A DNA stretch of 64,000 bases from NCBI RefSeq assembly GCF_036365525.1, contig NC_090402.1:8707079-8771078 (forward strand), written 5' to 3'. The DNA comes from Heterodontus francisci (Eukaryota). Under the pieces are notes generated by a model. It was given only the letters and a program-made list of their open reading frames with translations. It did not search any database and was not told the DNA's origin. This document shows, piece by piece, positions 19,506 to 61,745 of this stretch. Position 1 is the stretch's first letter; each line of letters starts with the position of its first letter. A program made the translations under genes and the position numbers.

Positions 19506-19509
19506 ACAG

Positions 19510-25640: not shown

Positions 25641-25671
25641 TGGCACAACTCAATATAAAGCACTTTGGAAT

Positions 25672-38451: not shown

Positions 38452-38869
38452 GGAATAAAAACAAGAAATACTGGAAATACTCAGCAGGTCTGCCAGCATC
38501 TGTGGAGAGAAGTAGAGTTAACGTTTCAGGTCAGTGACCCTTCATCAGAACTGGTAAAGGTTGCAAATGTAATAGGTTTTAAGCAAATAAAGCAGGTGTG
38601 GGGCAAGATATAACAAAAAGCAAGGTGTTGCTAGGACAGTGTCACAGAGAATAACTGACCAGAAGTTCATGGCGCAAAGGCAAATGGTATTTTAATGGTG
38701 TGCTGAAAGACAAAGCGTTAGTGCAGAGAGGGCGTTAATGGACAGAAAAATGAACAGCCCTGGCCCAAAGCGCAGACGTGAAAAAAACAGTGGGCAGGCA
38801 CATGGTAAGAAAAATGAATGATGGAGCAAACTGAAATAAAATAAAAATAACTGAAAAATAAAAAGGGGG
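38452..38869 (-). mobile_element. Penelope pLTR/3' UTR insertion with an intact hammerhead core and 9-bp flanking direct repeat
   Basis: GGCCTTATT at 38443-38451 and 38870-38878; sequence matches 49757-50165. Confidence 0.88.
38516..38553 (-). ncRNA. Minimal type I hammerhead ribozyme motif
   Basis: Minus strand CAGTT-CTGATGA-A-GGGTC-ACT-GACCT-GAAA-CGTT-AACT: core CUGAUGA/GAAA, helix II, palindromic helix III, helix I AGTT/AACT. Confidence 0.7.
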
Positions 38870-39404
38870 GGCCTTATTAGATATGCCTGTGTTCAAAAAG
38901 GGAACACATTGGACCTACTGCAAAATGGAAGACATGGTTGGAGAGTAACGACCCACTCTGCTCGCTATAAAATTGTCAGCAAAGAAGTTTGATTTAAAGA
39001 TTGCTTTCATTAAGACACAACTTCTATTTGTTGAATGGGAAACTAAATTATCAAGGCAAGGCTATCTGGATAGTTTGATTTGTACAAAGGCATCAATCTA
39101 ATATAAGTTTTTTTTTTGTTAATGATTGAAAGTAAATATTTTTCACAACACAGTTCAGGAAGCTGATCCTGTTCCATATATATGACTGTGAAGTAAGTAC
39201 AGTTATGTATTGTCAAAATATGAAATGATGCATTCCATACTGAGTTTTTTATTTCCTTGTAATGGAAAAGGATGGGTCTTGCTGAAGATTGGAATTTATG
39301 GCTTTACTCAACATCTGGTGCTGTAACACATTGCATTCCACAAGTGTTCTTCCCAGATATCAGTTTTGGGTAGATACTAATTTAAATTAATCCATTAATT
39401 ATAC

Positions 39405-39670
39405 AGTAATGACAAAGGCAGCGGGTGCATGTTGACACCATCACCTCCAGGTCACATGCAATCTTGACTTAAACGTATATCACTCACTCTGCCATCAGTG
39501 CTCAGTCAGAAGCCTGGAACTCCCTACCTAATAGCATTGTGGACGTGCCTTCACAACATGGATTGCAGCTGTTCAAAAAGGTGGCCCACCATTATCACCT
39601 CAAGGACATCAAGAGATGGGCAGTAAAGGCTGGATTTACCAGCGATTATATCATCACAAAGAATGATTTA
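39405..39670 (+). mobile_element. Degenerate 3' end of the 35320-36210 LINE family
   Basis: gacaaaggcagcgggtgcatg...cctggaactccctacctaatagcattgtgg. Confidence 0.7.
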
Positions 39671-40638
39671 AACATACCACCTCAACTATAATTAATATTC
39701 TATGCCTTTTGCTAGAAATATCTTCCCCCTAATTGGTGAGGCATTTTATTTTGTCATTATTTCCGTTGAAACTTGTTCAGCCATCTAGACAAATCCTGAA
39801 ATGGCTGGATCTGGAATCCGAACTCGTCTTGTATTCCTCATTTCAGTTCATCAGTACCCTTACAAAAATATGTTTCATTTTAATGCTGCTTTCACTAGTA
39901 TGAATTCTTGTCATCTATCTTGGGTTTGTTTTTAAAAATGTCTTTAATCTGTTCCAATACTGTTCCAAAGTATTAAAATAAGAGTTAAATTATTCAGAAG
40001 TAGATTTGTGTGGTTAATATTTTTGTTTTATGCTAGTATTACAGTTTTACAGATTGGTTGTCTAAATATTCAAAGCAGTGGCAATTAAACTTCTTTCGTC
40101 ATAAACCTAGGGCAAGAGTGATTCAAAAATCACCTGAAGTGCCTCCCCTTGATCACCACTTTTGTACTGTTATGTGCTGAGAGGAATCAATTGGATTAAC
40201 TCGGTTTATGTTTCCTCAATGTATCCCATGAAAACAAATGGTGCAGGCTAATGTTCACTGTATCTGAGTGAGCCTGCCTGCATATAAAGCATAATGTTCT
40301 GGTTTGACAAATGAGAAATTGATGGATCAATACAAACCACTCAGCAGCTTTTCATCAACAGTGACCCTGAAGATGCTTCAGCATCACCATCTATAATGTG
40401 ATTGGCTAAAAGGTGGTACCTAATAAAGCATCTTAGTATCTTGTTCTGTGAGTGGCTAAGAAAATGCTGCATTGAGTCTGCAGGCTTTGCGACACTGCAG
40501 AGAGAATGAGACTTCTGCAATACTTTCACATACCTTTTTTGGCCTGTGGTTCAGTGTATATAGCACAGTGTAGGGTGCTGCAATACCTCCCCAATAGGAC
40601 TCTTACAAATTTCCAATCTCAAACTATTAAGATACAGG

Positions 40639-40839
40639 ATGCTGAAAGCTGTATATGAGTATCTGTATAAAATATTCCTGAAAGTGGTGTGTCAGGATCC
40701 AGGTGTGGGGAGGGAACAGACCAATTACTTGGACAATGCAACTGAAATGCAGGGAAAACCCAGTGACACAGAGGATGGAAATGATGCTGACGGAAATCGA
40801 CATGGGCAGGATCATAAATCTGTGCAGGAACCAGTAAAG
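40639..40839 (+). CDS. SLC25A25: Probable SLC25A25 alternative first coding exon, isoform c type
   Basis: MLKAVYEYLYKIFLKVVCQD aligns in pattern with recalled human isoform c MLQMLWHFLASFFPRAGCHG; A at -3 of ATG; two phase-0 GT donors (40834 and 40840); lies between b- and a-type exons as recalled for human. Low identity and the donor is ambiguous. Confidence 0.6.
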
Positions 40840-41951
40840 GTAGTGTGTGATGATTCTTGTGGTCAGAGAGCAAAACTGTTTTCTTTCAACAGCTTTAGAG
40901 AGTATATAGTGGTACATACAGTAGAACAGATGTTGCTTTAAAGTTTTAACGAGATCCAGTTTCATATCCTTTAGAAAACAGCCTTTTAATTGTGAAATAA
41001 TCACAAAAATAACATACTTAAAACATGTTAGGGGGTTAAAATGATTTTCAGAGTTTGTTCGAAAGAAGTATGTCTTTGTTATCCATTTTATTAACTGTAT
41101 TCAGCAACAGTTTGCAAAATAAATGCCACCTCACTCAATTCTATGAAAAAGGTTTCATAGAACAATTTCAATAGTAAGTATCAAAAGATGATCTATATGT
41201 GGAGTGATTGTCTACATAATGTGGAATGCGATTTGCTTTATCTTTGTCTGCATTATAATACTTAGACCAATCAGTTTTAAGTTTTTGCTATCCTTCAAGA
41301 GAGGCAAACAAAGAATCTTATGTATTTGGTTAGATAATGATAACTGCTTGCTGGTGAGCACTTTGCCTGGAATAGTGGACATAATGTATCTGAGAGGGGG
41401 AAAAAATGAGCCTGTCCTAATGCAGTACATGTCGTTCTGCCCCTCAAACATGTCTCCACTGCAGTTGACTCGCAGTTTGAAACCTACAAAGTTTGGGGGT
41501 CCTGAAACAATTTCTGGATTGTAGTGTGTGGTTCTCAAAGGATCAACTGTGACTGTTATTCAGGATGTCGCGTTTGAAGGTTTTGCAGAGTGGGTAATCA
41601 CTCAAACATATTTCAATGTTGAATGGAGGGTGCCTACTTTGCTACTTAGAGTTAAGACATTGTCTAAAATACCTCAAATAACTAGAAAAGGCTTCATCGG
41701 TGTATAATTTGCTTAGTCTCTTCTGAGAAATCAAAAGCTACTGCATTGTATTTTCACAGAAAGTTATTCTCTCTGTCCTTCCAGCTCTGTGGTTGCTTCA
41801 AATTCCAGATCTTCTGAAAATCCTCCAGAGAGAAACCAATTATCCAGTATCTGACTTTAAAGAACACAGCTGATTACCTTTAAAAACTCTATCTATATGT
41901 CCTTTTCAGTCTATTCTATTGATGTTTAAGAGGAATGTGATGCAATGTTGA

Positions 41952-42082
41952 TGAAGGGTCACTGACCCGAAACGTTAACTCTGCTTCTCTTTCCACAGAT
42001 GCTGCCAGACCTGCTGAGTGGTTCCAGCATTTCTTGTTTTTATTTCAGATTTCCAGCATCCGCAGTATTTTGCTTTTATTTT
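41952..42082 (+). mobile_element. Penelope-derived pLTR insertion with 8-bp flanking direct repeat
   Basis: AATGTTGA at 41944-41951 and 42083-42090; tgatgaagggtcactgacccgaaacgttaactctg. Confidence 0.85.
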
Positions 42083-45000
42083 AATGTTGAAAATTGGCTT
42101 GGTTTGAACACAAATGAATATATTTTTTTTAATATATTCTTTCATGCGATGTGGGCATCACTGGCAGGCCAGCATTTGTTGCCCATCTCTAATTGCCCTT
42201 GAACCGAGTGGCTTGCTAGGCTGTTTCAGTATTGTACCAACTGGTTTATCAAAAATTCCAAAATATTATGAAAACACAGCTGCATCTGTTCCCTGCTGGT
42301 CTGACTGTAAGTGCATGGAATTCCTTAAATTACCTTAGTTAAACTGTATTTTGGAATTAATCAAAGCTCAAACATGTTAACTTAAATTCAGTTGCGTTGT
42401 GTCGTTATTGTCTGCTGTGACAAACAAACCTAAAAGAAGCTACTTGTTTGTGTTGTTTGGCTTGAAGATGGTTGCAGAAATCTTAAAGCTGGATTTTGTT
42501 TAATATTGTATTTCTCCAGAATGTGTTATGATCTGACTCTTATCTATGGGAATGAATCTTTGCATCCTATGCAATTAAATAATTTTGTAGTGCAAGTGGC
42601 TAGTAACTATTTGGAACTATTAGATTTTTTAGTACATTTAAGTGGAGATAACATCAAGATGTACCTTTTTTTTTTAGTAGTTGCGAACAGGTGTAATTTA
42701 ATAAGCCAGAAAATGGCAACATTCCATCTAAAACGTAGATGGATTATTATGAGCATAGTGAATTATTACACTTTGACTGTTTTTCCTATAATTCAGTGGA
42801 ATCTAGAGTAATGGGTTGAAAATGCATTCTTGGAATAGCAGTTGTCCAAATATTGAATCTGTAAAACTACCCCCTTATCTCGATGATTAAGATATGTACT
42901 GTAGCTTTTTGATATGTTACTGTGGGTTTGCTGAGCCTGTTACTGTAATTACTTTGGCATTTAATCCTGATAATATGGACAAAATAGTTTGTTTACCTCT
43001 TCATATGGTGAATTGGATTTTACTGAATTTGAGAACTGAGCCAAATATTGATTTTTTTTTTTTTTTGTTACACACCATTTTTCAAGAAACTTTCATTCAG
43101 TATAGCAGTGAGGAAGAATTCTGTGCTGAGCTTCTGCATCTCTATATTCTATGAAAATAAATAAGAATTGTGGTTATATTCTTCAGTAAAACTTAAGAGT
43201 CAGACACGCACTTCTTCCTCATAATCATTTCATCTCAGAATTATTCCGATGGATGTAGTGTGGTGAAACTAAAGTTGCAAATTTCTGTGAATATAAACCA
43301 ATGAAATTCTATTAAGAAAAACACAACCAATGATAAAGAATTTCTGTGGAAATAACACAAATCCTGGCAGTAAAATTTCATTAAGCAAAATGCAAGGGAT
43401 TGCCGCCCTTCATAATGAACAGCTAATAAAATTGTATTCTGAAAATTGCATGTTTCAAAGCTGTTTGTTAGTGGGTTGTTAATTCTGAAGAAAACGGTCC
43501 TTTTTTTTTTAGAGAATTTGAGTTTAGTTAGTTGGAAAGCAGCTTTGTAAAAGATTTATATAAAAAAAGTGATGTTGATGTTTTTGGAAAATGTATGTTC
43601 CATTCGTATAGTGGACTATTACTGAAGCATTAGCAAATGGAGATAAAGGCCTAGGATTTCTGATTGTAACATTGATAACCCACTTGTAGTGAATAGGTTA
43701 CTATTGGTATTACAATTATAAAATCTGGACCCTGTTATTTTAAAGCTGCTTTTCCAATCAAAAGTAATTCATCTACAAAAACTGAGAGATTACCTTTGCC
43801 TTTCGCTGGCTACTGTAGTTTGTAATGTCAGTCTAGTGTCAGTTGTTCACGGATCCAGTATTGTTCCCTACAACAGGTAGCTTGCCTCCTTTTAAACTCA
43901 ACAGCCTTGACACAGGATTTGCAAGTGGGCAGCGTGCTTGCAAGAGGCCATTGCTGGGAGCTGGGACAGACTGTCACTGGCAATTGCATGGGAGGGGTCC
44001 AGTAGTGGTTGGGGTAGGGAGTGTGGTACCATGGTCCAGATGTGACATATGAAGACGGGCCACTGGGATCTTTTCTAAAGCAGTTCTTTTCAGATGGCTT
44101 TGAGAATTAATCTGGCAGGTTTTTGCAGCATCTCCGGAAAGATACAGCACCAGGAATTTTAGCTGTCCCGCACTGGATCTTGGCAGGGTTTCTTCAGAGG
44201 TAGGGAAAGAGGTAAGCTGGGTCATTCCCTTATCCTTGGCAGGCAAAACACCAACTGTCTTCAAAACAGTTCACACCCCAACTGACTTGAAAACGATATT
44301 TAACCCCCAAACAGAAAGTCAACCACTTGACCTCCATAAGCCTTGACATGTGGCTTCTCTGTAAATATCTTCCCCAGGTCACCAATGTTTATGTTGTTTA
44401 CTGAGCTTAGCACATGATTTCCAGCACAGGTTGTTTTCAAACAACATCTCCAGTGTCCTTACAGTGAACTTGGTTCAAAAAAACTTCTTGTGGAACCTTT
44501 TCAGTTTTAACACAAGTCCTCAAAACAAAACATTAAAAAATGGAAGCACTTTCATAACCGTGTACTGAAACATACAGAAGAGAAGCAACTAGGTTTGATC
44601 CTTGACCCATACAAAATTAATTGGTCTCCGTTCAAGAGGTAGTAAGGACACTACATTTGACTTCAGTATCCCGGAGGTCAAGGGAGGGGGTGGGGGGTGG
44701 TGGTGGGAAGCAAACTCAACTGGGATCTTGCTCCACTGACAGTTTACTACCTCCTCACTGACATTGCTTTGCCTTGCTCACTGAAATTTCCATCTGTGAT
44801 ATGTCTCCTGTTGACCTATTGGGCTGATTTTTTCCTGGTCCTTATCTTGGGAATGCCCAATTTACTGGTTGCAAAGATCAGGAAAAAGACTTCGCCTTTT
44901 TGACCTGGGTTTTCTGGGGCTTTCCTCGGGAGTGTATCTTGGCCTGTATGTGCAGCAGGCGCTGGCGCAATTAAGCTGCGCTAATTGGGGTTGGGGAGTG

Positions 45001-45129
45001 GGGAAGTGTCTTCCTGGCCACCTGCCCCTGTCCAGCAGGGGGGCATAGCCTCCAGTGGTCATCCGTCTGTCTAGAAGCCTCAACTTGTCCAAGTCTCAGT
45101 ACAGAACAGTATACAAATAGCTGACTTCT

Positions 45130-45385
45130 TGCTGACCTACAGTTTAAAGATCTCTGTCCTTGTCTTCAAATCTTTCAGTGGCCTCACTCCATCTCATCTC
45201 TACAATCTGCTCCAGAATTATTTACTCTTCTGTCCCTTTTGGTCTTCTGAATCTAGCCTCTGCCCCCTATCTTCAGCTGCCACTGCTCCACTTTCTGAAA
45301 CTCTCCACTTCTCTGCTTGTCCCTACCATTTTTGTTTAAGGTAAAATTTTTTGAATATCCAACTTTTGAACCAAGCTTTTAACAA
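45130..45385 (+). mobile_element. Old L2 3' fragment
   Basis: LKISVLVFKSFSGLTPSHLYNLLQ. Confidence 0.65.
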
Positions 45386-45424
45386 TGCTTAATTGATAGT
45401 TGTTTGGTAGTACAGAACTTGACA

Positions 45425-45878
45425 ATTGCTGAAGATAGAGACATGTTGAAGCTTTCCGTCTTGCACTCGGCAGGACAATATGCAAGAATAACCAATGTAA
45501 GGGAAAACAACAACATACTGCTTGAGAAGAGAGTGCTGATTGGTAGAGACATTACAATGGCGAATGCACCAGTTTACAGTGACTGACAGTTAACTGCCAA
45601 GCTTTGTTTTAAATTTAAACCAGGCAGCTTGACTCTGGTCAAGACATTGCCCTGAGGAATGAACCAACGAATGGCTGTCATTTATTTTGTTCTGCTGAAA
45701 CAGGCGCAATGTGTGCTAAGAATTACGATGACAACCAATTTAAGATTGTTGGTAGGGTTCACAGTGTGGCGCATTTGCGCGTACTGGAAGCTACATGTAT
45801 TAATACACAGAGCCCTGTTCTTTGCAGGAAGAAAGAACATCTACACACACTGTGCCTGTTTAAATTTCAAACAAAGCT
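45425..45878. mobile_element. Second Penelope-like family (Poseidon/Penelope type): inverted pLTR piece plus GIY-YIG C-terminus
   Basis: FKIVGRVHSVAHLRVLEATCINTQSPVLCRKKE on +; 45597-45626 is an inverted copy of 45853-45879. Confidence 0.7.
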
Positions 45879-45879
45879 T

Positions 45880-47577
45880 CTACGCTCCAATGAGAAAAGC
45901 CCTAGCATCCTCAATCTTTCTTCGTAGGACATGCCCTCCAGTCCAGGCAGCATCCTGGTAAATCTCCTCTGCACCCTCTCTAAAGCTTCCACATCCTTCC
46001 TATAATGAGGCGACCAGAACTGAACACAATATTCCAAGTGTGGTCGAACCAGGGCCTTTTAGAGCTGCAGCATAATCTCGCGGCTCTTAAACTCGATTCC
46101 CCTGTTAATGAAAGCCAACACATCATTTGCCTTCTTAACAACCCTATCATCTTGGGTGGCAACTTTGAGCGATCTATGGACATGGACCCCAAGATCCCTC
46201 TGTTCCTCCACACTACCAAGAATCCTGTCTTTAAGCCTGTATTCCGCATTCAAATTCGACCTTCCAAAATGAATCACTTCACACTTTTCCAGGTTGAACT
46301 CCATCTGCCACTTCTCAGCCCAGCTCTGCATCCTGTCAATGTCCCGTTGCAACCTACAACAGCCTTCCACACTATCCACAACTCCAGCAACCTTCGTGTC
46401 ATCGGCAAACTTGCTAACCCAGCCTTCCACTTCCTCATCCAAGTCATTTATAAAAATCACAAAGAGCAGAGGTCCCAGAACAGATCCTTGTGGTCACCGA
46501 GCTCCATGCTGAATACTTTCCATCTACTACCACCCTCTGACTTCTATGGGCCAGCCAATTTTGTATCCAGACAGCCAGCTTTCCCTGAATCCCATGCCTC
46601 CTCACTTTCTGAATGAGCCTACCATGGGGAACCTTATCAAACGCCTTGCTAAAATCCATATACACCACATCCACTGCTCTTCCTTCATCAATGTGTTTTG
46701 TCACATCTTCAAAGAATTCAATAAGGCTTGTGAGGCATGACCTGCCCCTCACAAAGCCATGCTGACTGTCTCTAATCAAACCATGCCTTTCCAAATAATC
46801 ATAAATCCTGTCTCTCAGAATCCTCTCCAATAATTTGCCCACTACCGACGTAAGACTGACTGGTCTATAATTCCCAGGGTTATCCCTATTCCCTTTCTTG
46901 AACAAGGGAACAACATTTGCCATCCTCCAATCACCCGGTACTACTCCAGTGGACAGTGAAGACGCAAAGATCATCGCCAAAGTCGCAGCAACCTCTTCTC
47001 TCGCTTCCCGTAATATCCTTGGGTATATCCCGTCTGGCCCCGGGGACTTATCTGTCCTCATATCATTCAAAATTTCCAGCACATCCTCCCTCTTAACCTC
47101 AACCTGTTCGAGCATATCAGCCTGTTCCACGCTGTCCTCACAAACGACCAGGTCCCTCTCACTAGTGAATACTGAAGCAAAGTATTCATTTAGGACCTCC
47201 CCTACCTCCTCCGACTCCAGGCACAAGTTCCCTCCACTATCCCTGGTCGGCCCTACCCTCACTCTGGCCATCCTCTTGTTCCTCACAGAAGTGTAGGAGG
47301 CCTTGGGATTTTCCTTAATCCTACCCGCCAAGACTTTTTCATGTCCCCTTCTAGCTCTCCTAAGTCCATTCTTCAGTTCCTTCCTGGCTACCTTGTAACC
47401 CTCTAAAGCCCTGTCTGATCCTTGCTTCCTCAACCTTAAGTAAGCTTCCTTCCTCTTCACTAGCTGTTGCACATCTCTTGTCATCCAAGGTTGCTTCACC
47501 CTACCATTCCTTCCCTGCCTCATCGGGACAAACCTATCCAGCAGTCGCAGCAAGTGCTCCCTAAACAACCTCCACAT
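45880..47577 (-). mobile_element. Relatively young CR1 ORF2 internal fragment (RT)
   Basis: 377-aa ORF with KSPGPDGIYPRIL, PGNYRPVSLTSVVGKLLE, QHGFVRGRSCLTSLIEF, YMDFSKAFDKVPH; continues after a deletion/frameshift as FINDLD...SKFADDTKV. Confidence 0.95.
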
Positions 47578-47602
47578 TTATGGTTCTTTTGTGAGGTGTG
47601 GT

Positions 47603-48617
47603 TCACTACTGCTGGGTACAGGTCTGTCACTGTATAACACTGGGTGACAGGTCTGTCACTGTATAACACTGGGGTACAGTACTGGTGGGTACAGGTCTGT
47701 CACTGTATAACACTGGGGTACAGTACTGCTGGGTACAGGTCTGTCACTGTATAACACTGGGGTACAGTACTGCTGGGTACAGGTCTGTCAATGTATAACA
47801 CTGGGGTACAGTACTGCTGGGTACAGGTCTGTCACTGTATAACACTGGGGTACAGTACTGCTGGGTACAGGTCTGTCACTGTATAACACTGGGGTACAGT
47901 ACTGCTGGGTACAGGTCTGTCAATGTATAACACTGGGGTACAGTACTGCTGGATACAGGTCTGTCACTGTATAACACTGGGGTACAGGTCTGTCACTGTA
48001 TAACACTGGGGTACAGGTCTGTCACTGTATAGCACTGGGGTACAGTACTGCTGGGTATAGGTCTGTCACTGTATCACACTGGGGTACAGTACTGGTGGGT
48101 ACAGGTCCATCACTGTATAACACTGGGCGACAGTACTGGTTGGTACAGGTCCGTCAATGTATAACACTGGGGTACAGTACTGGTGGGTACAGGTCCGTCA
48201 ATGTATAACACTGGGGTACAGTACTGGTGGGTACAGGTCTGTCAATGTATAACACTGGGGTACAGTACTGGTGGGTACAGGTCTGTCAATGTATAACACT
48301 GGGGTACAGTACTGCTGGGTACAGGTCTGTCAATGTATAACACTGGGGTACAGTACTGCTGGATACAGGTCTGTCACTGTATAACACTGGGGTACAGGTC
48401 TGTCACTGTATAACACTGGGGTACAGGTCCGTCACTATCACACTGGGGTACAGTACTGCTGGGTACAGGTCCATCACTGTATAACACTGGGGTACAGTAC
48501 TGCTGGGTACAGGTCCATCACTGTATAACACTGGGGTACAGTACTGGTGGGTACAGGTCTGTCAATGTATAACACTGGGGTACAGTACTGGTGGGTGCAG
48601 GTCTCTCAGTGTATAAG
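47603..48617. repeat. 44-bp minisatellite (about 24 units, with shorter deletion variants)
   Basis: GTCTGTCACTGTATAACACTGGGGTACAGTACTGCTGGGTACAG repeated. Confidence 0.97.
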
Positions 48618-49005
48618 TTCAGATCTCACCAGAGCAGCTGGTGAAATTTAAATTCAATTAATAAAATAATTGTTAGGAATAATAAAAGGCTAATCTGATT
48701 AATGGTGACTGTGAAACTACCGGATTTTAAAAAAACCCATCTGGTTTACTAATGTCCTCACCCAACCTGGCCTATGTGTAACTCCAGACTCTCAGCCATG
48801 TGGTTGACTCTCAACTGCCCTCTTAAATGGCCTAGCAAGCCACTCAGTTGCATCAAACCACTACAGAAAAGTGGCATAACAGAACTGTGGGTGTACTACA
48901 GCACATGGACAGCAGCGGTTCAAGAAGCGGCTAACCACCACCTTCTCGAGGATAATTGGGGATAAGCCTTGCCAGTGATGCTCACATCCCATGAATGAAT
49001 AAATG
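48617..49005 (+). mobile_element. Head-truncated tRNA-derived SINE (5985-6395 family) with LINE tail
   Basis: gttcagatctcaccagagcagctggtgaaatttaaattc...cccatctggtttactaatgtcc...cacatcccatgaatgaataaa. Confidence 0.75.
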
Positions 49006-49753
49006 TAAAACATTTTTTTTATCTTCTTTCATAAATTGTTGAATCATTGGTTTTCAGCTGTAAAGAAAGGACTTGTGCTATATACGTTTTCACAGCATCA
49101 GGATGTCTTAAAGTGCTTTACAGCCAATGAAGTATTTTTGATCTGTGGTCGCTATTGTAATGGAGGGAAGTGTTGCTAATTAATAGTCATGAGGGTGTCT
49201 CTTAGCAAGCTACCAGTACAGACTGACAAAGGTGAAGTCGTGAATTCTACATCTTTAATCCAAGTAAGTAGTACAGCAGAATATCTGGGTCACAGCTGAG
49301 TTATTTAAACCATTTGGATCAACTCTTTGATTTGTGACTTCCATTGAAACCAAGGTGGAAAAAGGTCTTTATACAAAATTGGAATGCCTGCAGCTTATTT
49401 TGAAGTGAAAAAGAACTCTGTTCCTGGAATAGAATGACCTGATCAGCAAACTGAGTGATTTGTTAATTGGAGCTGTCCTCTTCTCTCAGTGTTGTCGAAT
49501 TATTTGTCATTAACTGCCTTTATGTCCCTAGAGGCTTTCCCAAGTTGCCCTCTCTTTATTTCCATTCCCCATCCTTCCATAAACTTTCTCTATATGGAGC
49601 AAAGAATTAATGTTGACAGTCCACTTGTTGATCAGGAGCAGGTTTTATTGAGACTTGCATCCCTTTCTCCACTCTTTGCTGCAAGGCTTCCAGGTCTCCT
49701 TTACAGTATTGCACATTTGCCAAGGGATGTACTTTAATACAAATATTCAGCTT

Positions 49754-52700
49754 CACAAACAAGAAATGCTGGAAATACTCATCAGGTCTGGTAGCATCTG
49801 TGAAGAGAGAAGCAGAGTTAACGTTTCAGGTCAGTGACCCTTCATCAGAACTGGCAGATATTAGAAATGTAAAAGGTTTTAAGCAAGTAAAGCGGGGGTG
49901 GGGCAAGAGATAACAAAAGAGAAGGTGTTGATAGGACAAGGTCACAGAGAATAACTGACCAGAAGGTCATGAAGCAAAGGCTAATGGTGTGCTGAAAGAC
50001 AAAGCATTAGTACAGAGAGGGTGTTAATGGACAGAAAACCGAGCAGCCTAGTCCCAAGCACAAACATGAAAAAAAAAATTGGGTAGGCACAGTAGAAACA
50101 AACTAAAATAAAATAAACACATAAAATCGAAAAAATAACTAAAAAAAAATAAAAAGGGGGGGTGTCCGTCATGCTCTGAAATTATTGAACTCTATGTTCA
50201 GTCCGGCAGGCTGTAGTGTGCCTAAACGGTAAATGAGATGCTGTTCCTCGAGCTTGCGTTGATGTTCACTGGAACACTGCAGCAATCCCAGGACAGAGAT
50301 GTGAGCATGAGAGCAGGGGCGAGTGTTGAAATGGCCAGCAACCAGAAGCTCGGGATCATACTTTTGGACTGAGTGGAGGTGTTCCGCAAAATGGTCACCC
50401 AGTCTGGGTTTGGTCTCCCCAATGTAGAGGAGACTGCATTGTGAGCAGCAAATACAGTATACTAAATTGAAAAAAGTACAAGTAAATCGCTGCTTCACCT
50501 GAAAGGAGTGTTTGGGGCCTTGGATAGAGAGGCGGTAAATGGGCAGGTATTACACTTCCTGCAATTGCAGGGGAAGGTGGTGGGGGTAATGGAGGAGTGG
50601 ACCATGGTGTCGTGGAGGGAATGATCCCTTCGGAATGCTGACTGGAAGGGAGGGGAAGATGTGCTTGGTTGTGGCATCACGCTGGAGGTGGCGGAAATGG
50701 TGGAGGATGATCCTTTTGGATGTGGAGGCTGGTGGGGTGGAAAATGAGGACAAGGGGGAACCCTGTCGCAGTTCTGGGAGGGAGGGTATGGGGACACTGC
50801 CACTTCTTTTCCAGGAATGCCTACCTTGAAGATGTTCTGCTCTTCTCTCTGACAGGATTTCCGTTTGTCTCCTTTACCTTGTTCACCCTCATTGCTTTCT
50901 ATTTCCCACCTGATGTTTGATAAAGTGTCCACCAAAACTCGTTTTCACAGCCACATCTCCTTCCTCAGTGGCTGTCTCCGGCTCCGACTTATTCCACGTG
51001 GATTCCAACTGCAGTTTCACCCATCATGTTTTGAATCCACCCAGGATTACAGATATCTCCGAGAAATACAACATTCCTCAGACTGCTGTTCTTGCCGCAC
51101 CCTGAGATCCACACTGAGTGCCATGCGCCGCCATATGTACGCACTGCCTCACCTTATCTCAAAGCTGTTCTACTCCGCAGTTTCATTTCATCCTTCGTCT
51201 TCTTTGATGCATTAACAAAAAACTTTTTTTCTTCCTTTTTGAAGTGTTAAGGAATGCAAACTCCAGCAGCTGATGGGGACTAATGCCTCTCCAGATCCTT
51301 CTTCCCCATCACTTCCCTCTAACCAGCAGACCCATTCACCCACCTCTAGCATTCTGCATCTACCTGGACCCCTCCCTCTGGCCTCTTACCCACTCGTGAT
51401 CTTTTCATGGAAAACTGTCGGCGAGATGTCGGCCACCTCAATTTCTCTGCCCCGCTCTGAACTTGTCACACTCCATTCTCTCAGGTCTAACCCTGACGTT
51501 GTCATCAAACCTGCAAACAAGGGTGGTGCTGTTGTCTGGCGTACCAACCTCTACCTTGCAGATGCTGAACACCACTCTCTGACACTTCCTCGTACCTCCC
51601 CCTGGACCATGACCCCACCGTCGAACATCAAGTGACTGTCCACAGGACTGTCACTGACCTCATCTCCTCTGGGGATCTTCCCTCTACAGCTTCCAACCTC
51701 ATAGTTTCACAACCCCAGACAGCCCGCTTCTACCTCCTTCCCAAAATCCACAAACAGGACTGTCCTGGCAGACCCATTGTTTCAGTCTGTTCCTGCCCCA
51801 CTGAACTTATTTCTTCCTATCTTGACTCTTATCTTTTCTCCCCTGGTCCAGTCCCTTCCCACCTACATCTGTGACTCTTCTGACACCCTACGTCATTTTG
51901 ACAATTTCCAGTTTCCTGGACCCAACCGCCGCCTCTTCACTATGGACGTCCAATCTCGCCACACCTCCATCCCCCACCAGGACGGTTTGAGGGCTCTCGC
52001 TTCTTCTTTGAACAGAGGCCCAACCAGTCCCCATCCACCACCACCCGCCTCCACCTGGCTGAACTTGTTCTCACATTGAACAACTTCTCCTTCAACTCCA
52101 TTCACTTCCTTCAAGTAAAAGGTGTTGCTATGGGTACCTGCATGGGTCCTGGTTAGGCCTATCTATTTGTGGGATATATCGAACATTCCTTATTCCAGTC
52201 CTATTCAGGCCCCCTCCCCCAACACTCTTTCTGGGTACATTGATGATTGTATCAGTGCCGTTTCCTACTCCCGTCCGGAACTGGAAAACTTTATCAACTT
52301 TGCTTCTAATTTCCACCTTTCTCTCACCTTTACATGGTCCATCTCCGACACTTCCCTTCCCTTTCTCGACTTCTCTGTCTCCATCTTTGGGGATAGGCTG
52401 TCTACTAATATTTATTATAAGCCCACCAACTCCCACAGCTACCTAGACTACACTTCTTCACACCCTACCTCCTGTAAGGACTCCATTCCATTTTCCCAGT
52501 TTCTCCGTCTCTGATGGAGAATTTAGTATAGTGTATTTGCTGCTCACAATGCAGTCTCCTCTACAGTCGGGAGACCAAACGCAGACTGGGTGACCGTTTT
52601 GCGGAACACCTCCGCTCAGTCCAAAAGCATGACCCCGAGCTTCCGGGGTTGCTGTCCTGGAATTGCTGCAGTGTTCCAGTGAACACCAACGCAAGCTCGA

Positions 52701-53244
52701 GTAACAGTACCTCATTTACCGATTAGGCACGCTATAGCCTGCCGGACTGAACATAGAGTTCAGTAATTTCAGAGCATGACGGGTCCCACTTTTTAATTTT
52801 AATTTTTTGTTATTTATTCTTTTTTAAGTGTTTTATTTTAGTTTGTTTCTACTGTGCCTACCCACTTTTTTTTTCCATGTTTGTGCTTGGGGCCAGGCTG
52901 CTCAGTTTTCTGTCCATTAACACCCTTTCTGTACTGATGCTTTGTCTTTCAGCACACCATTAACGCACTATATTGCCTTTGCTCCATGACCTTCTGGTCA
53001 GTTATTCTCTATGACCTTGTCCGATTAGCTCCTTTTTTGTTATCTCTTGCCCCACCCCTGCCTTACTTGCTTAAAACCTTTCACATTTCTAATATCTGCC
53101 AGTTCTAATGAAGGGTCACTGACCTGAAGCGTTAACTCTGCTTCTCTCTTCACAGATGCTGCCAGACCTGCTGAGTATTGCTAGCATTTCTTGTTTGTGT
53201 TTCAGATTTCCAGCATCTGCAGTATTTTGCTTTTATTGCAAACC
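49754..53244. mobile_element. Penelope-like element (Neptune type) with an inverted architecture: minus-strand 3' copy (about 49754-50790) joined to a plus-strand degenerate body (about 50830-53240)
   Basis: RT motifs FTMDVQSRHTSIPHQDG, GVAMG, YIDD; Cys linker FPCNCRKCNTCPF; GIY-YIG NLVYCICCSQCSLLYIGETK; pLTRs at both outer ends; TTCAGCTT at 49746-49753 and 53245-53252. Confidence 0.92.
49816..49853 (-). ncRNA. Minimal type I hammerhead ribozyme motif
   Basis: Same intact motif as 38516-38553. Confidence 0.7.
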
Positions 53245-53316
53245 TTCAGCTTGTCTGGGTAACTGTCCGGCTGCTGCTATACACAGACATTTGTGTCCCC
53301 TGCATAAAGTGAAGAA

Positions 53317-53660
53317 TTTATTTATTTATTTTGAGATACAGCACTGAAACAGGCCCTTTGGCCCACCGAGTCTGTGCCGACCAACAACCACCCATTTATA
53401 CTAATCCTACATTAATCCCATATTCCCTACCACATCCCCTCAATTCCCCTACCACCTACCTACGCTAGGGGCAATTTACAATGGCCAATTTACCTATCAA
53501 CCTGCAAGTCTTTGGCTGTGGGAGGAAACCGGAGCACCCGGCGAAAACCCACGCAGTCATGGGAGAACTTACAAACTCCGCACAGGCAGTGCCCAGAATC
53601 GAACCCCGGTTGCTGGAGCTGTGAGGCTGTGGTGCTAACCACTGCACCACTGTGCTGCCC
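53317..53660 (-). mobile_element. V-SINE (HE1-like), near full length
   Basis: GGGCAGCACAGTGGTGCAGTGGTTAGC tRNA head; V domain TGCGTGGGTTTTCGCCGGGTGCTCCGGTTTCCTCCCACAG; CR1-type tail GGGCCAAAGGGCCTGTTTCAGTGCTGTA followed by (AAAT)n. Confidence 0.9.
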
Positions 53661-54409
53661 CATCCTTAATATCTTTATATTGCAGCTGTGGGAATAGGCA
53701 AAATGATTTGGTTTCCATTTAATCATTTGTTAATATGTTGGCTCAGAATACCAGTTTTAAAAGGCATCAAAATCTATGTAAGGATAAGTAAGTATCACAG
53801 TGAAGGAGGAAGAGCTATTGCTGTTTTTGCTAACTGTGTATTAATTTAAACAAATTCAATTTCTCAGTTGCATTTTATATTGGTGATTGTATTAATGAGC
53901 TGTACAGTTTGGTTGAAGTAAAAGATTACTTTAATTATTCTCTATATACCATTGGTAAGCCGGGCAGTCCATCTGGGAAATTGCTTTGGATACTTTGCGA
54001 TTTTAATCTGTACCATGTGACTTCTCTTCTCAAGTACCCAATCATCATATTTCCTTGCCTCGGTAGCTTCTGTTCCTGCACATAAGTGATTGTCATTCAA
54101 ATTTACATCCATTGTAAAAATGCCTTTTTCAACTATCTGTTGGCAATTGATGCCAGTCATAGCTTCTCTGAATTTCTAACCGAAATTAATTGATACAAAG
54201 GAAGCCTGGGGGTGGGGGAGAGAGTTCAACAGCTTGTTAAAAATGCTATTAAAACCAGGAAGTTTAGAAATTAATTTTGGTATGAATAGATGATTACTTA
54301 ATGCATTCATGACCTTTCACTTTTTATTTTAAAAAAGGCATTAACCCATCTGAAATAAGCAGGTTAGCGCCTAGAGTAAAATACCAGGAGAGGAATGTCA
54401 TAGGACTGC

Positions 54410-54612
54410 AAGGCCTGGCCAGTATTTATCCCTCAATCAACATCATAAACAGATTATCTGGTCATTATCACATTGCAGTTTGTGGCAGTTCCTGTGTGCA
54501 AATTGGCTGCTGCGTTTCCGACATTACAGTAGTAACTACATTTCAAAAGTACTTCATTGGCTGTAAAGCACTTTGGTCATGAGAGGTGCTCTATAAATGC
54601 AAGTTGTCTTCA
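54410..54612 (+). mobile_element. SacSINE1-like 3' half
   Basis: cctggccagtatttatccctcaatcaac...ctataaatgcaagtt. Confidence 0.82.
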
Positions 54613-54699
54613 TTAAGAGTTGATCTATCACCAACAATTTCTATAATTGCTTATAAGCCACTGTACACTTGTGGGCAAGGCAGAGACTTCTGGTCTTGC

Positions 54700-55862
54700 T
54701 GAATATGTTCTGCCTTTGTGACTGCCCTTGACATCAAGGCATCATTTGACAGACAGTGTGTCACCAAAGAGCCTGAATAAAATTGGTCAATGGGCTGAGG
54801 ACTCTGCCTGTGAGGATCAGGGGAAACTCTCCAGTGGCTGGAATTATACCTGTTACAAGGGAAGATGGCTGTGGTCATTGGAAACTGATCTTCGAGCCCC
54901 TGGACATGGCTGTTAACATTCCTCAGGGCAGTGTCGTAGTCTTAACTATCTTCAGTTGTTTTCGTTAATGACCTTCCCTCCATCCTAAGGTCTGAAGATT
55001 CACCTGTGGATTGCATTGTTCAGCTGCACTCAATTCCTTAGATAATGGAACAGTCCACGCCTGCTTGCAACAAGACCTGGACAACATCCAGGCTTGGGCT
55101 AAGAGCTGATTTAACATTTTTGCCACACAAGTGTCAGGCAGTGACCATTTTCAAGTGAAAGCATAACTACCTGTGATTAACATTTAACGCAACTACCACT
55201 GCAGAGTGTTCCCCTCCACTTTTCAATATGTTGAAGGTCACCATTGAACTATACCAGCTACCTGCGTGCTGTGGCTGGGGTTACTGTAGCGAGTGGCTCA
55301 CCTCCTGATTTCCCAAAGCATCTTCACCACCCTACAATTCACAAGTCAGTAGTGCGATGTAATACTTCCTATTTGTCAGATGGGTGCAGCTCCAACAGTG
55401 CTCAAGAAGGCTGAACGCTATCCAGGGCAAAGCAGTCCGCTTGATTGGCACCCTCTCCACAGGCTTGAATATCCACTCCCTACGCCAGCGCCATACCATG
55501 GCTACAGTATGTACCATCTGTCGGATGCACTACAGTAATTCGCCAAGACTTCTTTAGCAGCACAACCCAAACCCATGACCTCCACTGACTAGAAGGACAA
55601 GGGCAATAAGTGCATGGAAGCGCCATCACCTCCAAGTTCCAATCCAAATTGCACAGCATCCTGAGTTATACATATATTGCCATTCATTCATTTTTGTTGG
55701 ATTAGAATCCTGGAACTCCCTACTGAACAACATTTTTGGAGCCTTCACCACATGGACTGCAGAGATTCAGGAAGGCCCATCACCACCATCTCGAGGGCAA
55801 CAAGGGAGTGATCATAAATGCCAGCCTAGCCAGCATCCCAAGAATGAGCTTAAACAAAAAAA
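54700..55862 (+). mobile_element. Degenerate copy of the 35320-36210 LINE family
   Basis: cccttgacatcaaggcatcatttgacaga (LDIKAxFDR), caagacctggacaacatccaggcttgggct, tail remnant. Confidence 0.8.
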
Positions 55863-56064
55863 GTACACTTTTTACCACCATGAGGGAAAAACCACATAGC
55901 TATTTCAGGTTCACATCAGCCAAAATATCAAAGCTTGCATTTTGGTTGATAGAAAATAAACTATAAAGGACGACTTTAACTTTTCATAACTTGTATATTG
56001 ACTTTAGAGTGAGTTTTTTTTTTTCCTGATCAAGGTAAGGGGAGTTTCATGCTGATAAGGGAAT

Positions 56065-56532
56065 TAGAGTCATAGTTATACAGCACAGAAACAGGCCCTT
56101 TTGGCCCAACGTGTCTGTGCCAGCCATCCAGCACCCAACTATTCTAATCCCATATTCCTGCACTTGGCCCGTAGCCTTGTATGTTATGGCGTTTCAAGTG
56201 CTCATCTAAATACTACTTAAATGTTGTGAGGGTTCCTGCCTCCACCACCTCTTCAGGCAGTGCGTTCCAGATTCCAACCATCCTCTGGGTGAAAAATGTT
56301 TTCCTCAAATCCCCCCCCCTAAACCTCCTGCCCCTTACCCTAAATCTATGCCCCCTGGTTCTTGACCCCTCTGCTAAGGGAAAAAGTTTCTTCCTTTCTA
56401 ACCTATCAATTCCCCTCATAATCTTGTACACCAAAATCATGTCCCTCCTCAGCCTTCTCTGCTCCAATGAAAACAACATTAGCCTTTTCAGTCTCTGCAT
56501 AGCTGAAATGGTCCAGCCCAGGCAACATCCTG
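56065..56532 (-). mobile_element. CR1 (HER1-like) 3' fragment
   Basis: LFSLEQRRLRRDMILVYKIMRGIDR...FFTQRMVGIWNALPEEVVEA. Confidence 0.88.
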
Positions 56533-57499
56533 TTGCAGATTTTTTAGCTCGTGGGTGTACCATCCCACATTTTCCAAACCCTTGTGGCCTCAAGGTCATC
56601 TGTATAACATTATTTTTCTTACTGATGGTTGAAACTGCCACAGGCAATAGAATTGGACCCCAAACACCTTACATCACCATTAAAACTATATTACTTTAAA
56701 TTAATTGTTCCTTTTAGTCATTAGTTTCAGATTATACAGACACTTTAAATACATTTCCTTTTGGTTAGTTACAAAGAATTGCTAAGGTGCAAGCGTTCTG
56801 CTCATGCCCTATTTGCATAATCTATTTGCATAATCAAACCTTATATAAATTTTAACAAAACACATGTGTTTGCAATGTTGCCTCGGGGGTGATGGGGAGC
56901 AGGAAGGAAGATGGGGTGCCATATTAGCATTTGAAAATTAGGTCCTATGCTTTGAGGACTTTCTGGATCAGCTATAAATTAACTCAACAATAAATAATGT
57001 ATTGTGTATTGCAGGACAATAATATGCAAATCAATAATGGAAACATTTTAATGAATTCTAACAAATAAATATCAAACATAGCAACATAAAACATTTACAC
57101 ATAAACCAGTGTAACACTGGAAAAAGTAGCATCAGTATTTTTAATAATTGCACATTTATTCTGGATTTATTTTGAGCCCCTCATTGTTGCAGTTAAACCT
57201 TCTGCACATAGTAAAAGTCCCTGATAGGTTTTAAAGGAATGCTGGGTATTCAGTAGCACCATGGAATTCTGACTGGCTTATCTTGGGCACCACTTGGTAA
57301 CATTGGCTAGGATGACCAGTTGAGTAAACCAGCTGCTGCTGTCACTTAGTTATGTTGGAAAGCTTCCTATTATGTTAAAATGTTAACATCTGTTGATCAG
57401 GAAGTTTTCCCTCGGAATCTTTAAGGTAAGTTAGTCAATGGATGATTCTGGGCACCCTTGAATTTAAGCTGTGAGGAAATGTTAAGCAAGCTTTACTTA

Positions 57500-57770
57500 C
57501 TGAAAGAAGGGACTTAATGATCTAATTGAAGCTTTCAAGATTTTGAAGAGAATTGATGTAAATAAGGTGCTTAAATATAAGGGACACAGGTGAAACATTG
57601 GGAAGGTAGGATTAAGAAGGATAGTCAAATGGATTTTTTTCACTCAAAGATTGAGTAAATTTTGAGATTGGATGCATTTCTGAACAGAAAAATGAGGGAT
57701 CTAGTGAGAAAGCAGGTAGGTATAATAGTTGAAAAATTGATAGTTTGTTGGCCTAATGCTTTTTTCTTTG
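57500..57770 (+). mobile_element. Old CR1 3' fragment
   Basis: gatctaattgaagctttcaagattttgaagagaattgat; ttttttcactcaaaga. Confidence 0.6.
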
Positions 57771-59594
57771 CTAAAATTCTTTTATTTCCTTTCTTGACAG
57801 CAAGTTTAGCCATGCAGTTACACCACTTTTAGAAGTGGATTTTCGTATTTCATGGCATGGTATCACTAGTGAATAAGGTGGGACAAGAGACTCAAAATTC
57901 CACAGATGGTGATCCTGACCATTACACTGGGATTGTGGATAATGGTTTTCACCAACACTGATCCCAGCTGGAATTTGCAGAGTCAGTGGGAGGGCACCTC
58001 ATTTGCATGGCATTACTTGAGCTGCATCTTTGGTGCCTGCCTGTCCCATGCCAGTGGAAAATCAACCATCTGTGCCCCAGCCATCACTTGTCTTGTAAGG
58101 GAAAGACAGATATTCTGCCTGTTAAGGCCACCAAGAAATTCTTGGAGACTTGAGTTAACCGGTCTCCTCGGTTTCTTAGCAGTTTCAGATGGTCTCCTAC
58201 TGAAATTACGACTGGAGAGCATTAGAACCTCAGTGAAATCTCAGGGCTACGGTTTTCCTTTTACTTAAACTCATTTTTAATTTTCTCAGTTTATCCCATC
58301 TAAAAGGTAGTGGTTTGATCCAGGGTATGTATGGTCTTGTGGGCAGTACTATTCCTCAGGTATTTCACTGAGGCAGCCATTATTCTTGTGTGCATTTGAA
58401 AAGTGTCAGCTCAAAGCTGCTGTTAGCTTGTATTCTGGGACACAGATGTCTGTGAGCTGGCTCCTTGAGTTCACACTAATTTTGGTTACTTTATCCTAGC
58501 AACAGAATCGTAGGCCCAATATTTCAATTTAGATTTTTCTACCAGGATGAGGGAACTGCATTTAGTAGCTTTAAACTCCAGGTGACAGCTTACAGCATCC
58601 AAATTAAAACAGCACTAGCTTAAAACCAGCGCCACTTTTTACTCACAAGGGATCCACGGTATACATTTAAAGCAGGAATTGCTGAGTAATTATTAAAAGT
58701 GAACCCTGTCATTGTTTTAACTTCTCTTGTCCCTCCACAGCTGAAGTCTGCTCACTTCACATATGCAAGGATTCAAGCTGGATATTGTACTTGTCTGTAT
58801 GGCTGTTAAACATGATGTGGATTTACCCACTGAGCCATTGGGGTACTTTGGTTTTTGCTAAGTTTTATGGTCTAAAATAGAAAATAAATTCTCTACACAG
58901 CTAAAATTGATTATGTTTAAGGCTGTTCTACTTGTGAACTCCAGTTCCCTGAAAAAAACATGTGCAACTTGATTGTGTAATTTAGACCTCGCATCTAAAG
59001 TCACTTGTTTGTGGGAATGAGTGAATTGAACACATCTCCTCCATTCTGTCCTCTGATCTTGCCAAGATACATATGTGTTTGCAGCCGAGAGGGCATTGTT
59101 GATTAAATTTGGTCCCAAGGCACCGTCATCGTTGCTATGGAATCGCTGTACTCTTGTGGTGCTATTCACTGGTGTTCTAGTGCATGGCACCATTACATCA
59201 GCTCCATGGCCAAACTTTTATTACTTGTGGTGGAGTTCAAGTGAACATTATGAAATAGTGTACACATGCTAGGTTATATAGAAGTTCATTGTATCTTTGA
59301 AATGTAGCATCTTGAACTATTTGAACTTGTAACAGCACTTATGCTGATGGACTTTACTCATTTGCGTATGTTTGAACGTCATTGTACCCCTTGCAAAACT
59401 CTGGAGAATTACCAGACAAATTATTGATCAATATGCAATCAATACTTTACTGGCTAGTGTGTATCACTGAATCAGATATGTTTAGTGCAATATAAAACAA
59501 AGTATTGAATTTTGCAGCCAGTTTGTCTTGAGTACGTTGTAGATATTTTTCAGAAAGCTAGTTGAAAATTCTTAGTTACTGATCCTCAGCAAGA

Positions 59595-59850
59595 CTTAAC
59601 TTGCATAACTATATTAGGTATGTAGATCTGCTTCGTGATTGGTGAGAATGCAGGGCGTCTTGACACTGCGTAGACAGGAAGGGCAGGGGAAACTGATCTC
59701 TGCTATAAAAGTGACGTAGCTGACTTCCAGTAATGTGATTCTCAGTCAGCCGGCATTTCAGCACTGCCTCAGTGCAATCATTTTAATTTATTTATTTTAT
59801 GCATCTGAATTTGTAAAGAATCATTTATTTTTTTCTGTCAAAAAGTCAGT
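59595..59850 (+). promoter_or_regulatory. TATA-containing promoter and 5' UTR of the SLC25A25 a-type exon
   Basis: TTGCATAA about 59601-59608, inverted CCAAT (GATTGG) about 59637-59642, TATAAAAG 59704-59711, TGACG half-CRE 59712-59716. Confidence 0.7.
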
Positions 59851-60009
59851 ATGTTGTGCCTATCGTTAAATGTACCAGTGCTGGACACTTTGGCACGGGA
59901 ATTTGAATACTTTGAATCAGGACGGCTGCCTGCTGAGCTAAAATCTTTGTTCAGGCTCAGCCTTTTCATCCCTTCGCAAGAGTTATCAACTTATCGCCAG
60001 TGGAGACAG
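59851..60009 (+). CDS. SLC25A25: SCaMC-2 alternative first coding exon, isoform a type (below the ORF-track length cutoff)
   Basis: Translates MLCLSLNVPVLDTLAREFEYFESGRLPAELKSLFRLSLFIPSQELSTYRQWRQ, matching recalled human isoform a MLCLCLYVPVIGEAQTEFQYFESKGLPAELKSIFKLSVFIPSQEFSTYRQWKQ; CAG|GTAAAT phase-0 donor at 60010. Confidence 0.93.
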
Positions 60010-60317
60010 GTAAATCAAAATGCTATCTGAGTTGATTCAGGTTTGTCAGTACATTATAATTTCACATGTTCTGGAGAATTTTAAGTTTTGAGTCCTGTGC
60101 TATTTGATGGCTACTCGGAAGATACTTCCTTATATTGCTACATGTTCAACATTTCAACAATACTGGGCTGCCTACTGAATGACTGACTGCACTAACTGTG
60201 GAAGTAGGATAGGCTGAGTCTCCTGCATACAAGCTCCTGTTAATGTCACCACTTTTATGCCAGATACTGGAAGCTGACTGACAATATCACAGCAAAGACA
60301 TTTCCTTTCTTAACTAA

Positions 60318-61745
60318 GAGCAAAATACTACAGATGTTGGAACTCTGAAATGAGAACAGAAAGTGCCGGAAATACTCTGGTCTAGCAGCATCTGTGTAGA
60401 GAGAAACAGAGTTAACGTTTCAGGTCTGTGACCTTTTATCAGAACTGGTAAAAGTTAGAAATATAACAGTCTTTGAGCAAGTGAAAGCAGGGAAGACTAA
60501 CAAGAAGGAAGGACTGTGATAGGACTGAGGGGCGAAGTGATTAAATGACAGGTGTGATGGAACAGAATGCAAATGGAGTACAAAATAGTGTAGTGAAAGA
60601 CAAAGCACGAATCCAGAGAGAGTGCTAATGGCAGAATAATGAACTGCTCCGTACAAAAGCAAAAACATGAAAAATAAGTTAGAGACTATCACATGGTTAA
60701 AAAATAAATAAATAACATATATCAAAAAATAAAAATAATGGGGCACATGGTCTGATATTATTGAACTCAATGTTGAGTCCAGTAGGATGTCGACTGCCTA
60801 ATTGGAAGATGAGGTGCTGTTCCTAGAGCTTGCATTGATGTTCACTGGATCACTGCAGCTGGACGAGGACAGAAATGTGAGCATGGGAACAAGGTAGTGA
60901 ATTAAAATGACAAGCACTCAGAAGCTCGGGATTATGCTTGCGGACCGAACAGAGGTGTTCTACAAAGGGGTCACCCAGTCTGTGCTTGATCTCCCCAGTG
61001 TAGATGAGATCACGCTGTGATCAGCGAATACAGTATACTAAATTGAAAGAAATACAAGTAGATCGCTGCTTTACCTGGAAGGAGTGTCCAGAGCCTTGAA
61101 TGGTGAGGAGAAAGGAGGTAAAAAGTCAAGTGTTACACCTGTAATGGAAGAGGATGATCCTTTGGATGCGGAGGCAGGTGGGGTGGAAAGTGAGGACAAG
61201 GGGTCCTGTCACAGTTCTGGGAGGGAGGGGGAGAGGTGAGGGCAGAAGTGTGGGAAATGGGTCAGACACAGTCAAAGGCCCTGTCAACCTCTGGGTAGGG
61301 GGGTCCTCGCTTGAGGAAAAAGGAGACGCTGTTGTGGAAGGTTGCATCATCAGAACAGATGCGTTGGAGACGGAGAAACTGGGAAAATGGAGTGGCTTCC
61401 TTACAGGAAGCAGAGAGTGAGCAAGTGTAATCAAGGTAGCCGGTAGGCTTATAATAAATACTAATGGACAGCCTATTCCCAGAGATGGAGACAGAGAAAT
61501 CGAGGAAGGAAAGGAAAGTGTTGGAGATGGACCATGTGAAGGTGAGAGAAGGGTGGAAATTGGAAGCAAAGTTGATGAAGTTTTCCAGTTCGGGGCAAGA
61601 GCAGGAAGCGACACCGATACAATCAGCAATGTACTGGAAAAACAGTTGGGAAAGGGGGCCTGAGTAGAACTGGAACAAGGAATGTTCAACAAATCCCACA
61701 AAAAGACAGGCATAGCTAGGACCCATGTGAGCACCCATAGCAACA
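60318..61745 (-). mobile_element. Penelope-like (Neptune type) 5'-truncated copy
   Basis: VAMGAHMGPSYACLFVGFVE...YIADCIG...FLDFSVSI...YYKPT...PFSQFLRLQRICS; pLTR at 60318-60450. Confidence 0.9.

Follow-up and report, generated by a model that had tools for sequence, protein, structure and literature searches.

Why does one intron of Heterodontus francisci hold hammerhead ribozyme motifs in every state from intact to broken, and does the strand on which a motif lies decide its fate? The question is raised by a 64,000-bp stretch of contig NC_090402.1 (positions 8,707,079 to 8,771,078 of assembly GCF_036365525.1; hereafter the window), which contains the start of a mitochondrial carrier gene. 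A reading of this DNA from its letters alone (the sequence-only reading) had noted two intact motifs antisense to the gene and damaged motifs on the sense strand, and had proposed selection against cleavage of host pre-mRNA. We arrive at a different answer: the motifs are terminal-repeat hammerheads of a Penelope-like element (PLE), present in this intron as remnants of broken insertions; these probably leave host RNA uncut and probably decay regardless of strand. We place the probability of this explanation at about 0.85.

Hammerheads at the head of a Penelope-like terminal repeat

The minus strand at 38516–38553 and 49816–49853 matches exactly the two motifs that had been named as intact. 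Read as a type I hammerhead, the motif begins with a helix I arm (AGUU), followed by the core C3-U4-G5-A6-U7-G8-A9, one extra A, helix II (GGGUC/GACCU, loop ACU) and then G12-A13-A14-A15.1, C-G and U16.1-U17, with the predicted cut before AACU; placement of the cut after GUU is thus agreed, as a prediction. Both copies have the core CUGANGA ... GAAA ... UH that characterizes minimal hammerhead ribozymes (min-HHRs), and in both, as previously described, helix III is the palindrome AACGTT alone: positions 15.2–16.2 without a real helix. The extra A at 9.1 recurs in 63 of the 68 copies scored in the intron sample described below. Three pairing-preserving forms of helix II had been reported and all are real, the 10.1–11.1 pair being G-U, A-U or G-C according to subfamily.

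A 26-mer allowed up to three mismatches has eight matches in the window (0.00 expected; 100 shuffles). A generic hammerhead descriptor finds three family copies and one unrelated match, and under tighter limits (helix II of at least 4 bp, helix III of at most 4 nt) it has zero matches in 20 of 20 rough 2-mer shuffles. An Rfam scan of the window returned no hammerhead family up to E=10. With a profile made from 30 genomic copies, 16 matches are obtained in the window, some of which are tail fragments only. The variants listed by the sequence-only reading are present near 4000, 14655, 19459, 25730, 34200, 41948, 53100 and 60410; that at 26250 is a 5' half only, on the plus strand. Genome-wide, the 37-mer of the intact motif occurs in 2,624 exact copies (1,324 forward and 1,300 reverse).

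The attribution to pseudo-long terminal repeats (pLTRs) of a PLE is supported by two kinds of evidence. Remnants of reverse transcriptase (RT) and GIY-YIG endonuclease adjoin the motifs in the window, and a separate genomic locus holds a decayed unit that runs from ribozyme to ribozyme. In addition, a head-to-tail array of 3,290-bp units, 100% identical across 5,927 bp, lies at C1:23.22 Mb: two of its units have an unbroken 924-codon frame (stop to stop) and one is 5'-truncated. The unit consists of one open reading frame (ORF) encoding RT and GIY-YIG, a 3' untranslated region (UTR), and a pLTR of ~135 bp that starts at helix I of the ribozyme. Pfam matches to the ORF are RVT_1 (E=6e-6) and GIY-YIG (E=0.002), both under the Pfam cut-offs, and the single PDB match (E=0.74) is not significant. 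Relatives of the ORF number 1,557 among 8,000 scored proteins, with RVT_1 in most of the 120 listed; the closest named relative among the matches is a bamboo shark protein (71% identity). Many solo copies have their start no more than a few bases from the helix I arm; 3' ends cluster near +96–108 and +133–142, in keeping with the known tail. Most copies are 5'-truncated, solo or inverted, and have target-site duplications. Judged from sequence, then, the motifs are genuine type I hammerheads of the minimal form, placed at the head of a Penelope-like terminal repeat, and are of a known kind; the variants of helix II and of the core mark subfamilies and were passed down by successive source elements.

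Three further observations concern the element. A 30-codon upstream ORF in the pLTR (array unit bases ~57–150) is in frame with the long ORF, with one TAA between. Six motifs with C at core position 4 occur on one strand of C1:22616651–22646863 at alternating spacings of ~5.8 and ~6.3 kb, which suggests that ~12 kb with two short PLE ends in it has been duplicated in tandem. The last 625 residues of the array ORF share 50–57% identity with many proteins, those with names being from sea urchin, snails and coral: either slow evolution or horizontal transfer may account for this.

Comparison with described systems bears out the assignment. In Cervera and De la Pena (2014, PMC4209133) the metazoan PLE min-HHRs are type I with CUGANGA plus one extra base, a 5-bp helix II, GAAA-C-G-U-U and a 4-bp helix I, mostly as dispersed single copies, and the same is seen here; the C-G-U-U ending is shared with many rows of their Fig. 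S3, and position 10.1–11.1 in their alignment is mostly G-C, with G-U and A-U also occurring. The single ORF with RT followed by a C-terminal GIY-YIG, the C-X4-C-X2-C linker before GIY-YIG (read from the translation of the array ORF), the tandem and partial-tandem pLTRs, the inverted 5'-truncated arm and the optional 30–40-bp tail are all features of endonuclease-containing (EN+) PLEs of Neptune/Nematis type as set out by Craig et al. (2021, PMC8557442), where a CX2-5CxxC linker before GIY-YIG is the marker of that type. By its linker, the element would be of this type. PAc, a Poseidon element of Anolis (Frangieh et al. 2024, PMC11167929), likewise has a pLTR hammerhead and a tail delimited by two favored 3' ends; its ORF starts inside the ribozyme, whereas the long ORF here starts ~150–170 bp downstream. 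Non-LTR retrozymes (bioRxiv 10.64898/2026.07.22.740005) also have PLE-related type I hammerheads and solo monomers, but are described as short tandem units. The window copies are the dispersed ends of a coding element, lying kilobases apart or inverted.

Intact cores on the sense strand of introns

With the first coding exon inside the window and the next ~230 bp beyond it, all intronic copies fall in intron 1, for which plus is the sense strand. Of the three sense copies previously called damaged (34200, 41948 and 53100), all are indeed so (Table 1), but the second breaks off within the core, next to a target-site duplication of 8 bp, and was thus already incomplete on insertion; its pLTR is 97% identical to the intact array unit. 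Among antisense copies two of three are intact: the damage at 60410, a G8A change in copy 60314–60448, had been overlooked. The tally of intact cores, 0/3 sense vs 2/3 antisense (Fisher P=0.4), favors the idea that host pre-mRNA is cleaved by intact sense copies, which selection then purges or disables. So does the insertion at 49754–53237, a single event with one 8-bp duplication around both arms, one containing copy 49816 and the other copy 53100: the sense arm has two core changes and the antisense arm has none.

The comparison of core integrity between strands was extended to 1.58 Mb of introns from 11 gene regions. Three neurexin-like genes supplied 1.0 Mb, from between their laminin-G exons, and eight regions with spectrin-repeat genes the other 0.58 Mb. 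Copies were found by the 62-bp tail alone, so that detection is independent of the core. Introns are expected to have more T than A on their sense strand, and the strand assigned as sense did so in 13 of 13 stretches (in two only slightly); three of the 13 lack any copy. The sample holds 102 copies, 49 sense and 53 antisense (P=0.77), of which 34 were dropped before scoring: seven without a tail start (one sense, six antisense), 21 without a recognizable ribozyme part (10 and 11) and six without the 5' half (four and two).

The 68 remaining copies (34 on each strand) show no strand bias. Canonical intact U4 motifs with the helix III pair number 8/34 sense vs 5/34 antisense (Fisher P=0.54), and intact cores with a helix III mismatch two vs four, giving 10 sense vs 9 antisense U4-intact cores. 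Cores with C4 that are otherwise intact number six vs four; counting these, 16/34 sense and 13/34 antisense copies are intact (P=0.62), and 18 and 21 are damaged (a class that includes helix I failures and some alignment noise). Mismatches are equally spread in the core (15/334 sense vs 13/337 antisense, P=0.70) and in the stems (34/471 vs 34/463). These data reject a fourfold deficit of intact copies on the sense strand (P=0.001–0.002).

A second line of evidence comes from the C4-G5 CpG of the young subfamily, for which the genome holds 23,220 unchanged motifs, 1,083 with C4U (which restores U4) and 933 with G5A (which destroys the core). Restoration slightly outnumbers destruction (P=0.0009; the counts pool strands, and some such copies may have spread in their own right). 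Since the restoring change is not rarer than the destroying one, the pattern is the opposite of purging.

Several points weigh the other way. A twofold depletion is only borderline excluded (P=0.03–0.06) with 68 scored copies; 1.0 of the 1.58 Mb derives from just three neurexin-like genes; gene spans were taken from Pfam exon matches and not from annotation; and totals in the 0.58 Mb of spectrin-repeat regions lean antisense (15 vs 20; intact, three vs three). The sole two intact intronic copies of the window are both antisense, and a preprint reports, for Xenopus, that retrozymes are depleted from introns overall. Strong selection on the sense strand nonetheless fails: given P=0.4 in the window, one of its three sense copies truncated on insertion, even numbers of intact cores in the larger sample and no depletion of restoring CpG changes, selection against intact sense cores is not supported and we regard it as very unlikely, its weak form being possible at this sample size.

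The lack of bias fits an element whose ribozyme would work in company. In array transcripts, two motifs would pair via an ACGU helix III, or an element protein would fold the RNA, and the paired or protein-assisted motif would then cut after GUU; lone intronic copies have no partner and are likely inert. Cutting only with paired copies or the element protein is what earlier work would lead one to expect: min-HHR monomers were inactive and dimers weak in PMC4209133, one of nine Xenopus dimers was active in the material reported, and the Anolis PLE ribozyme of PMC11167929 cut only with protein, its mutants still inserting in vitro. If lone copies rarely get to cut, there is little for selection to act against; much of the later damage is CpG decay. 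Intact minimal hammerheads occupy the sense strand of introns without apparent harm, as fits inactivity of lone copies.

Both intact window copies could instead have been co-opted, the host gene using them as regulatory or antisense ribozymes. In favor is their density: the 64 kb hold two exact 37-mers, against a genome average of 2,624 in 6.0 Gb. However, the window was chosen since both copies had been noticed; both are antisense, and both lie in ordinary broken insertions whose flanks have decayed (81–90% identity to other copies). To co-option we give almost no credence.

A young lineage with C at core position 4

The youngest subfamily, which includes the intact array, has the core CCGAAGA (U4C). 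A degenerate pattern allowing U or C at position 4 matches the genome 57,299 times, 19,097 with U and 38,202 (67%) with C4; these counts are lower bounds and favor young copies. The total of 57,299 exceeds the vertebrate maxima of ~4,000–9,000 in PMC4209133, where the search method differs. CCGAAGA occurs in 23,220 exact 37-mers, none of which has the strict CUGANGA: a descriptor fixed on CUGANGA misses the C4 form and with it about two thirds of such motifs here. The C4 form is likely a variant that would work like a min-HHR, to be held apart from the canonical members.

That C4 copies look youngest follows from several observations. The helix III CpG (15.2/16.2) is still CG in 20/20 copies of the G-C subfamily, compared with 8/17 for G-U and 6/20 for A-U, and terminal branches in a tree of 29 endonuclease-region copies are 0–0.036 for C4 vs 0.023–0.15 for U4 (the tree, with 4 of 26 inner branches well supported, is used for terminal branch lengths and not for rooting). 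Intact frames were seen in C4 units only; the one full-length U4 unit examined lacks a frame of more than 400 codons. In contigs from four runs of two studies (whose RNA status is guessed) C4 makes up 29–43% of depth. In Fig. S3 of PMC4209133, by contrast, all 56 rows are U4 and none is from a cartilaginous fish, a comparison of limited weight because the descriptor used there fixed the core. The identical substitution occurs in a natural viroid hammerhead cited in PMC3088659, there as a single variant and here as the majority state of a retrotransposon family with minimal helix III. A U4C-dominated young lineage would be new, as a modest variant of a known hammerhead kind.

What might the substitution do? 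According to PMC3088659 (citing Ambros and Flores 1998), U4C considerably lowers in vitro activity of the viroid ribozyme while infectivity is kept, and U4C would likely weaken cutting here too. The C4 lineage keeps every other core position and has the G10.1-C11.1 pair. In folding predictions the U4/U7 motif of the window prefers a fold that sequesters the core (-7.3 vs -5.9 kcal/mol for the hammerhead), whereas the hammerhead fold of the C4/A7/G-C motif, at -7.8 kcal/mol, lies next to the minimum of -7.9; predicted helix I probability rises from 0.27 (U4) to 0.57 (C4). With 60-nt flanks the minimum-energy fold is not a hammerhead for either motif, and although active dimers can be drawn at predicted energies of -8.5 and -13.7 kcal/mol, the lowest-energy dimers are at -23.6 and -24.8.

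Two explanations can be offered. The ribozyme of the youngest lineage may be dead or dispensable, U4C having been fixed because cleavage is unneeded for transposition; the rest of the core would then persist because descent is recent, or because it serves otherwise (as a promoter or in protein binding). This would agree with the presence of C4 in 38,202 of 57,299 matches and in the tandem array, which is intact and 100% identical, with the lowered activity in vitro, and with the insertion of Anolis ribozyme mutants; it sits poorly with conservation of all other core positions, with the gain in the same lineage of canonical G10.1-C11.1 and predicted loss of the competing fold (hammerhead -5.9 to -7.8 kcal/mol), and with a viroid variant active enough for infectivity. 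We rate it somewhat short of an even chance. Alternatively, the lineage may have retuned its hammerhead: U4C fixed, G10.1-C11.1 restored and the competing fold lost, resulting in a slow or protein-gated ribozyme that is now the youngest and most numerous form in a 6-Gb genome. A weakened but retained switch is what we infer for this lineage; the fuller account of retuning we put forward tentatively, as less likely than not. If true, the genome offers a dated series of natural cores, from U4 to C4, against which to test what cleavage does for Penelope elements. An intact young non-consensus element beside older canonical ones makes the role of cleavage testable.

Insertions and other features of the window

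Table 1. Element copies, hammerhead motifs and the coding exon in the window.
Position	Strand	Feature	Remarks
1050–1124	-	pLTR	without 5' half of ribozyme
3942–4801	-	old element 3' end	core C3U, helix II mismatch
14603–14694	-	older pLTR upstream of gene	core intact, helix III 16.2 G>U
19389–19509	.	head-to-head inverted pLTR pair	plus copy: intact core, 15.2 C>U; 12-bp flanking duplication
20252–20945	+	two decayed pLTR tail fragments	20252–20370, 20889–20945
25660–25849	.	inverted pLTR pair	minus copy: intact core, 15.2 C>U
26249–26275	+	motif 5' half only	without GAAA
~31939–32158	+	first coding exon (EF-hand), SCaMC-type mitochondrial carrier gene	rest of window is its intron 1
34198–34332	+	solo sense pLTR, young C4 / G10.1-C11.1 subfamily	C3U, G5A, 15.2 C>G; 9-bp duplication
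38449–38871	-	5'-truncated Penelope-like 3' end (3' UTR + pLTR)	9-bp target-site duplication
38516–38553	-	intact canonical minimal hammerhead (U4, G10.1-U11.1)	antisense to gene; predicted cut between 38520 and 38519
41950–42083	+	solo sense pLTR, G10.1-C11.1 subfamily	5'-truncated at about core position 7; 8-bp duplication
49754–50793	-	inverted 3' arm of 49754–53237 insertion	GIY-YIG remnant, 3' UTR, pLTR
49816–49853	-	intact canonical minimal hammerhead	antisense to gene; predicted cut between 49820 and 49819
50795–53237	+	main arm of 49754–53237 insertion	frameshifted, partly deleted RT ORF, 3' UTR, pLTR
53098–53236	+	sense pLTR, damaged core	G5A, A15.1G
60314–61755	-	older (A10.1-U11.1) 5'-truncated element with RT remnant	antisense hammerhead 60410–60447 has G8A

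The best PDB match of the EF-hand exon is SCaMC-1, and more EF-hand and mitochondrial-carrier exons follow on the plus strand from ~230 bp to ~14 kb past the window end. The gene may be SLC25A25, a putative paralog name taken over from the sequence-only reading and based on sequence motifs. The copies had been placed throughout its introns: the intronic location stands, the plural does not, since every intronic copy falls within intron 1 of the long form. No alternative first exon was found inside this intron in a search by one motif.

The predicted cut site of the pLTR (e.g. 38500–38520, minus strand) shares bases with a TTAAC that resembles a branch point; a pyrimidine tract and CAG come after it, and a second acceptor-like site lies ~50 bp beyond. 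That the ribozyme lies inside a spliceosomal intron of the pLTR is unsupported: no such joint is among the 15 of 30 joints listed for contigs from four runs (a check of presence only, with contigs aligned to bases 1–400 of one element locus and the RNA status of the runs guessed). Several of these contigs span the predicted cut site; contigs carry no cut-end or strand information.

Pfam assigns no family to the broken ORF pieces in the window, or to the frames at 13.4–14.1 kb. A long near-perfect hairpin at 7337–7421 scores 46 bits to mir-549 (gathering threshold 93) on both strands and is likely an inverted repeat of another element, while a weak tRNA-like match (22 bits) within a repeat at 6299–6381 (minus strand) is likely the head of a short interspersed element. 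Long reading frames resembling those of long interspersed elements lie at 30056–30958 (plus) and 46447–47577 (minus), the second with an RVT_1 match. CpG-rich segments occur at 1–500, 13501–14000 and 31501–32500; the last covers exon 1 and the first two may mark other promoters.

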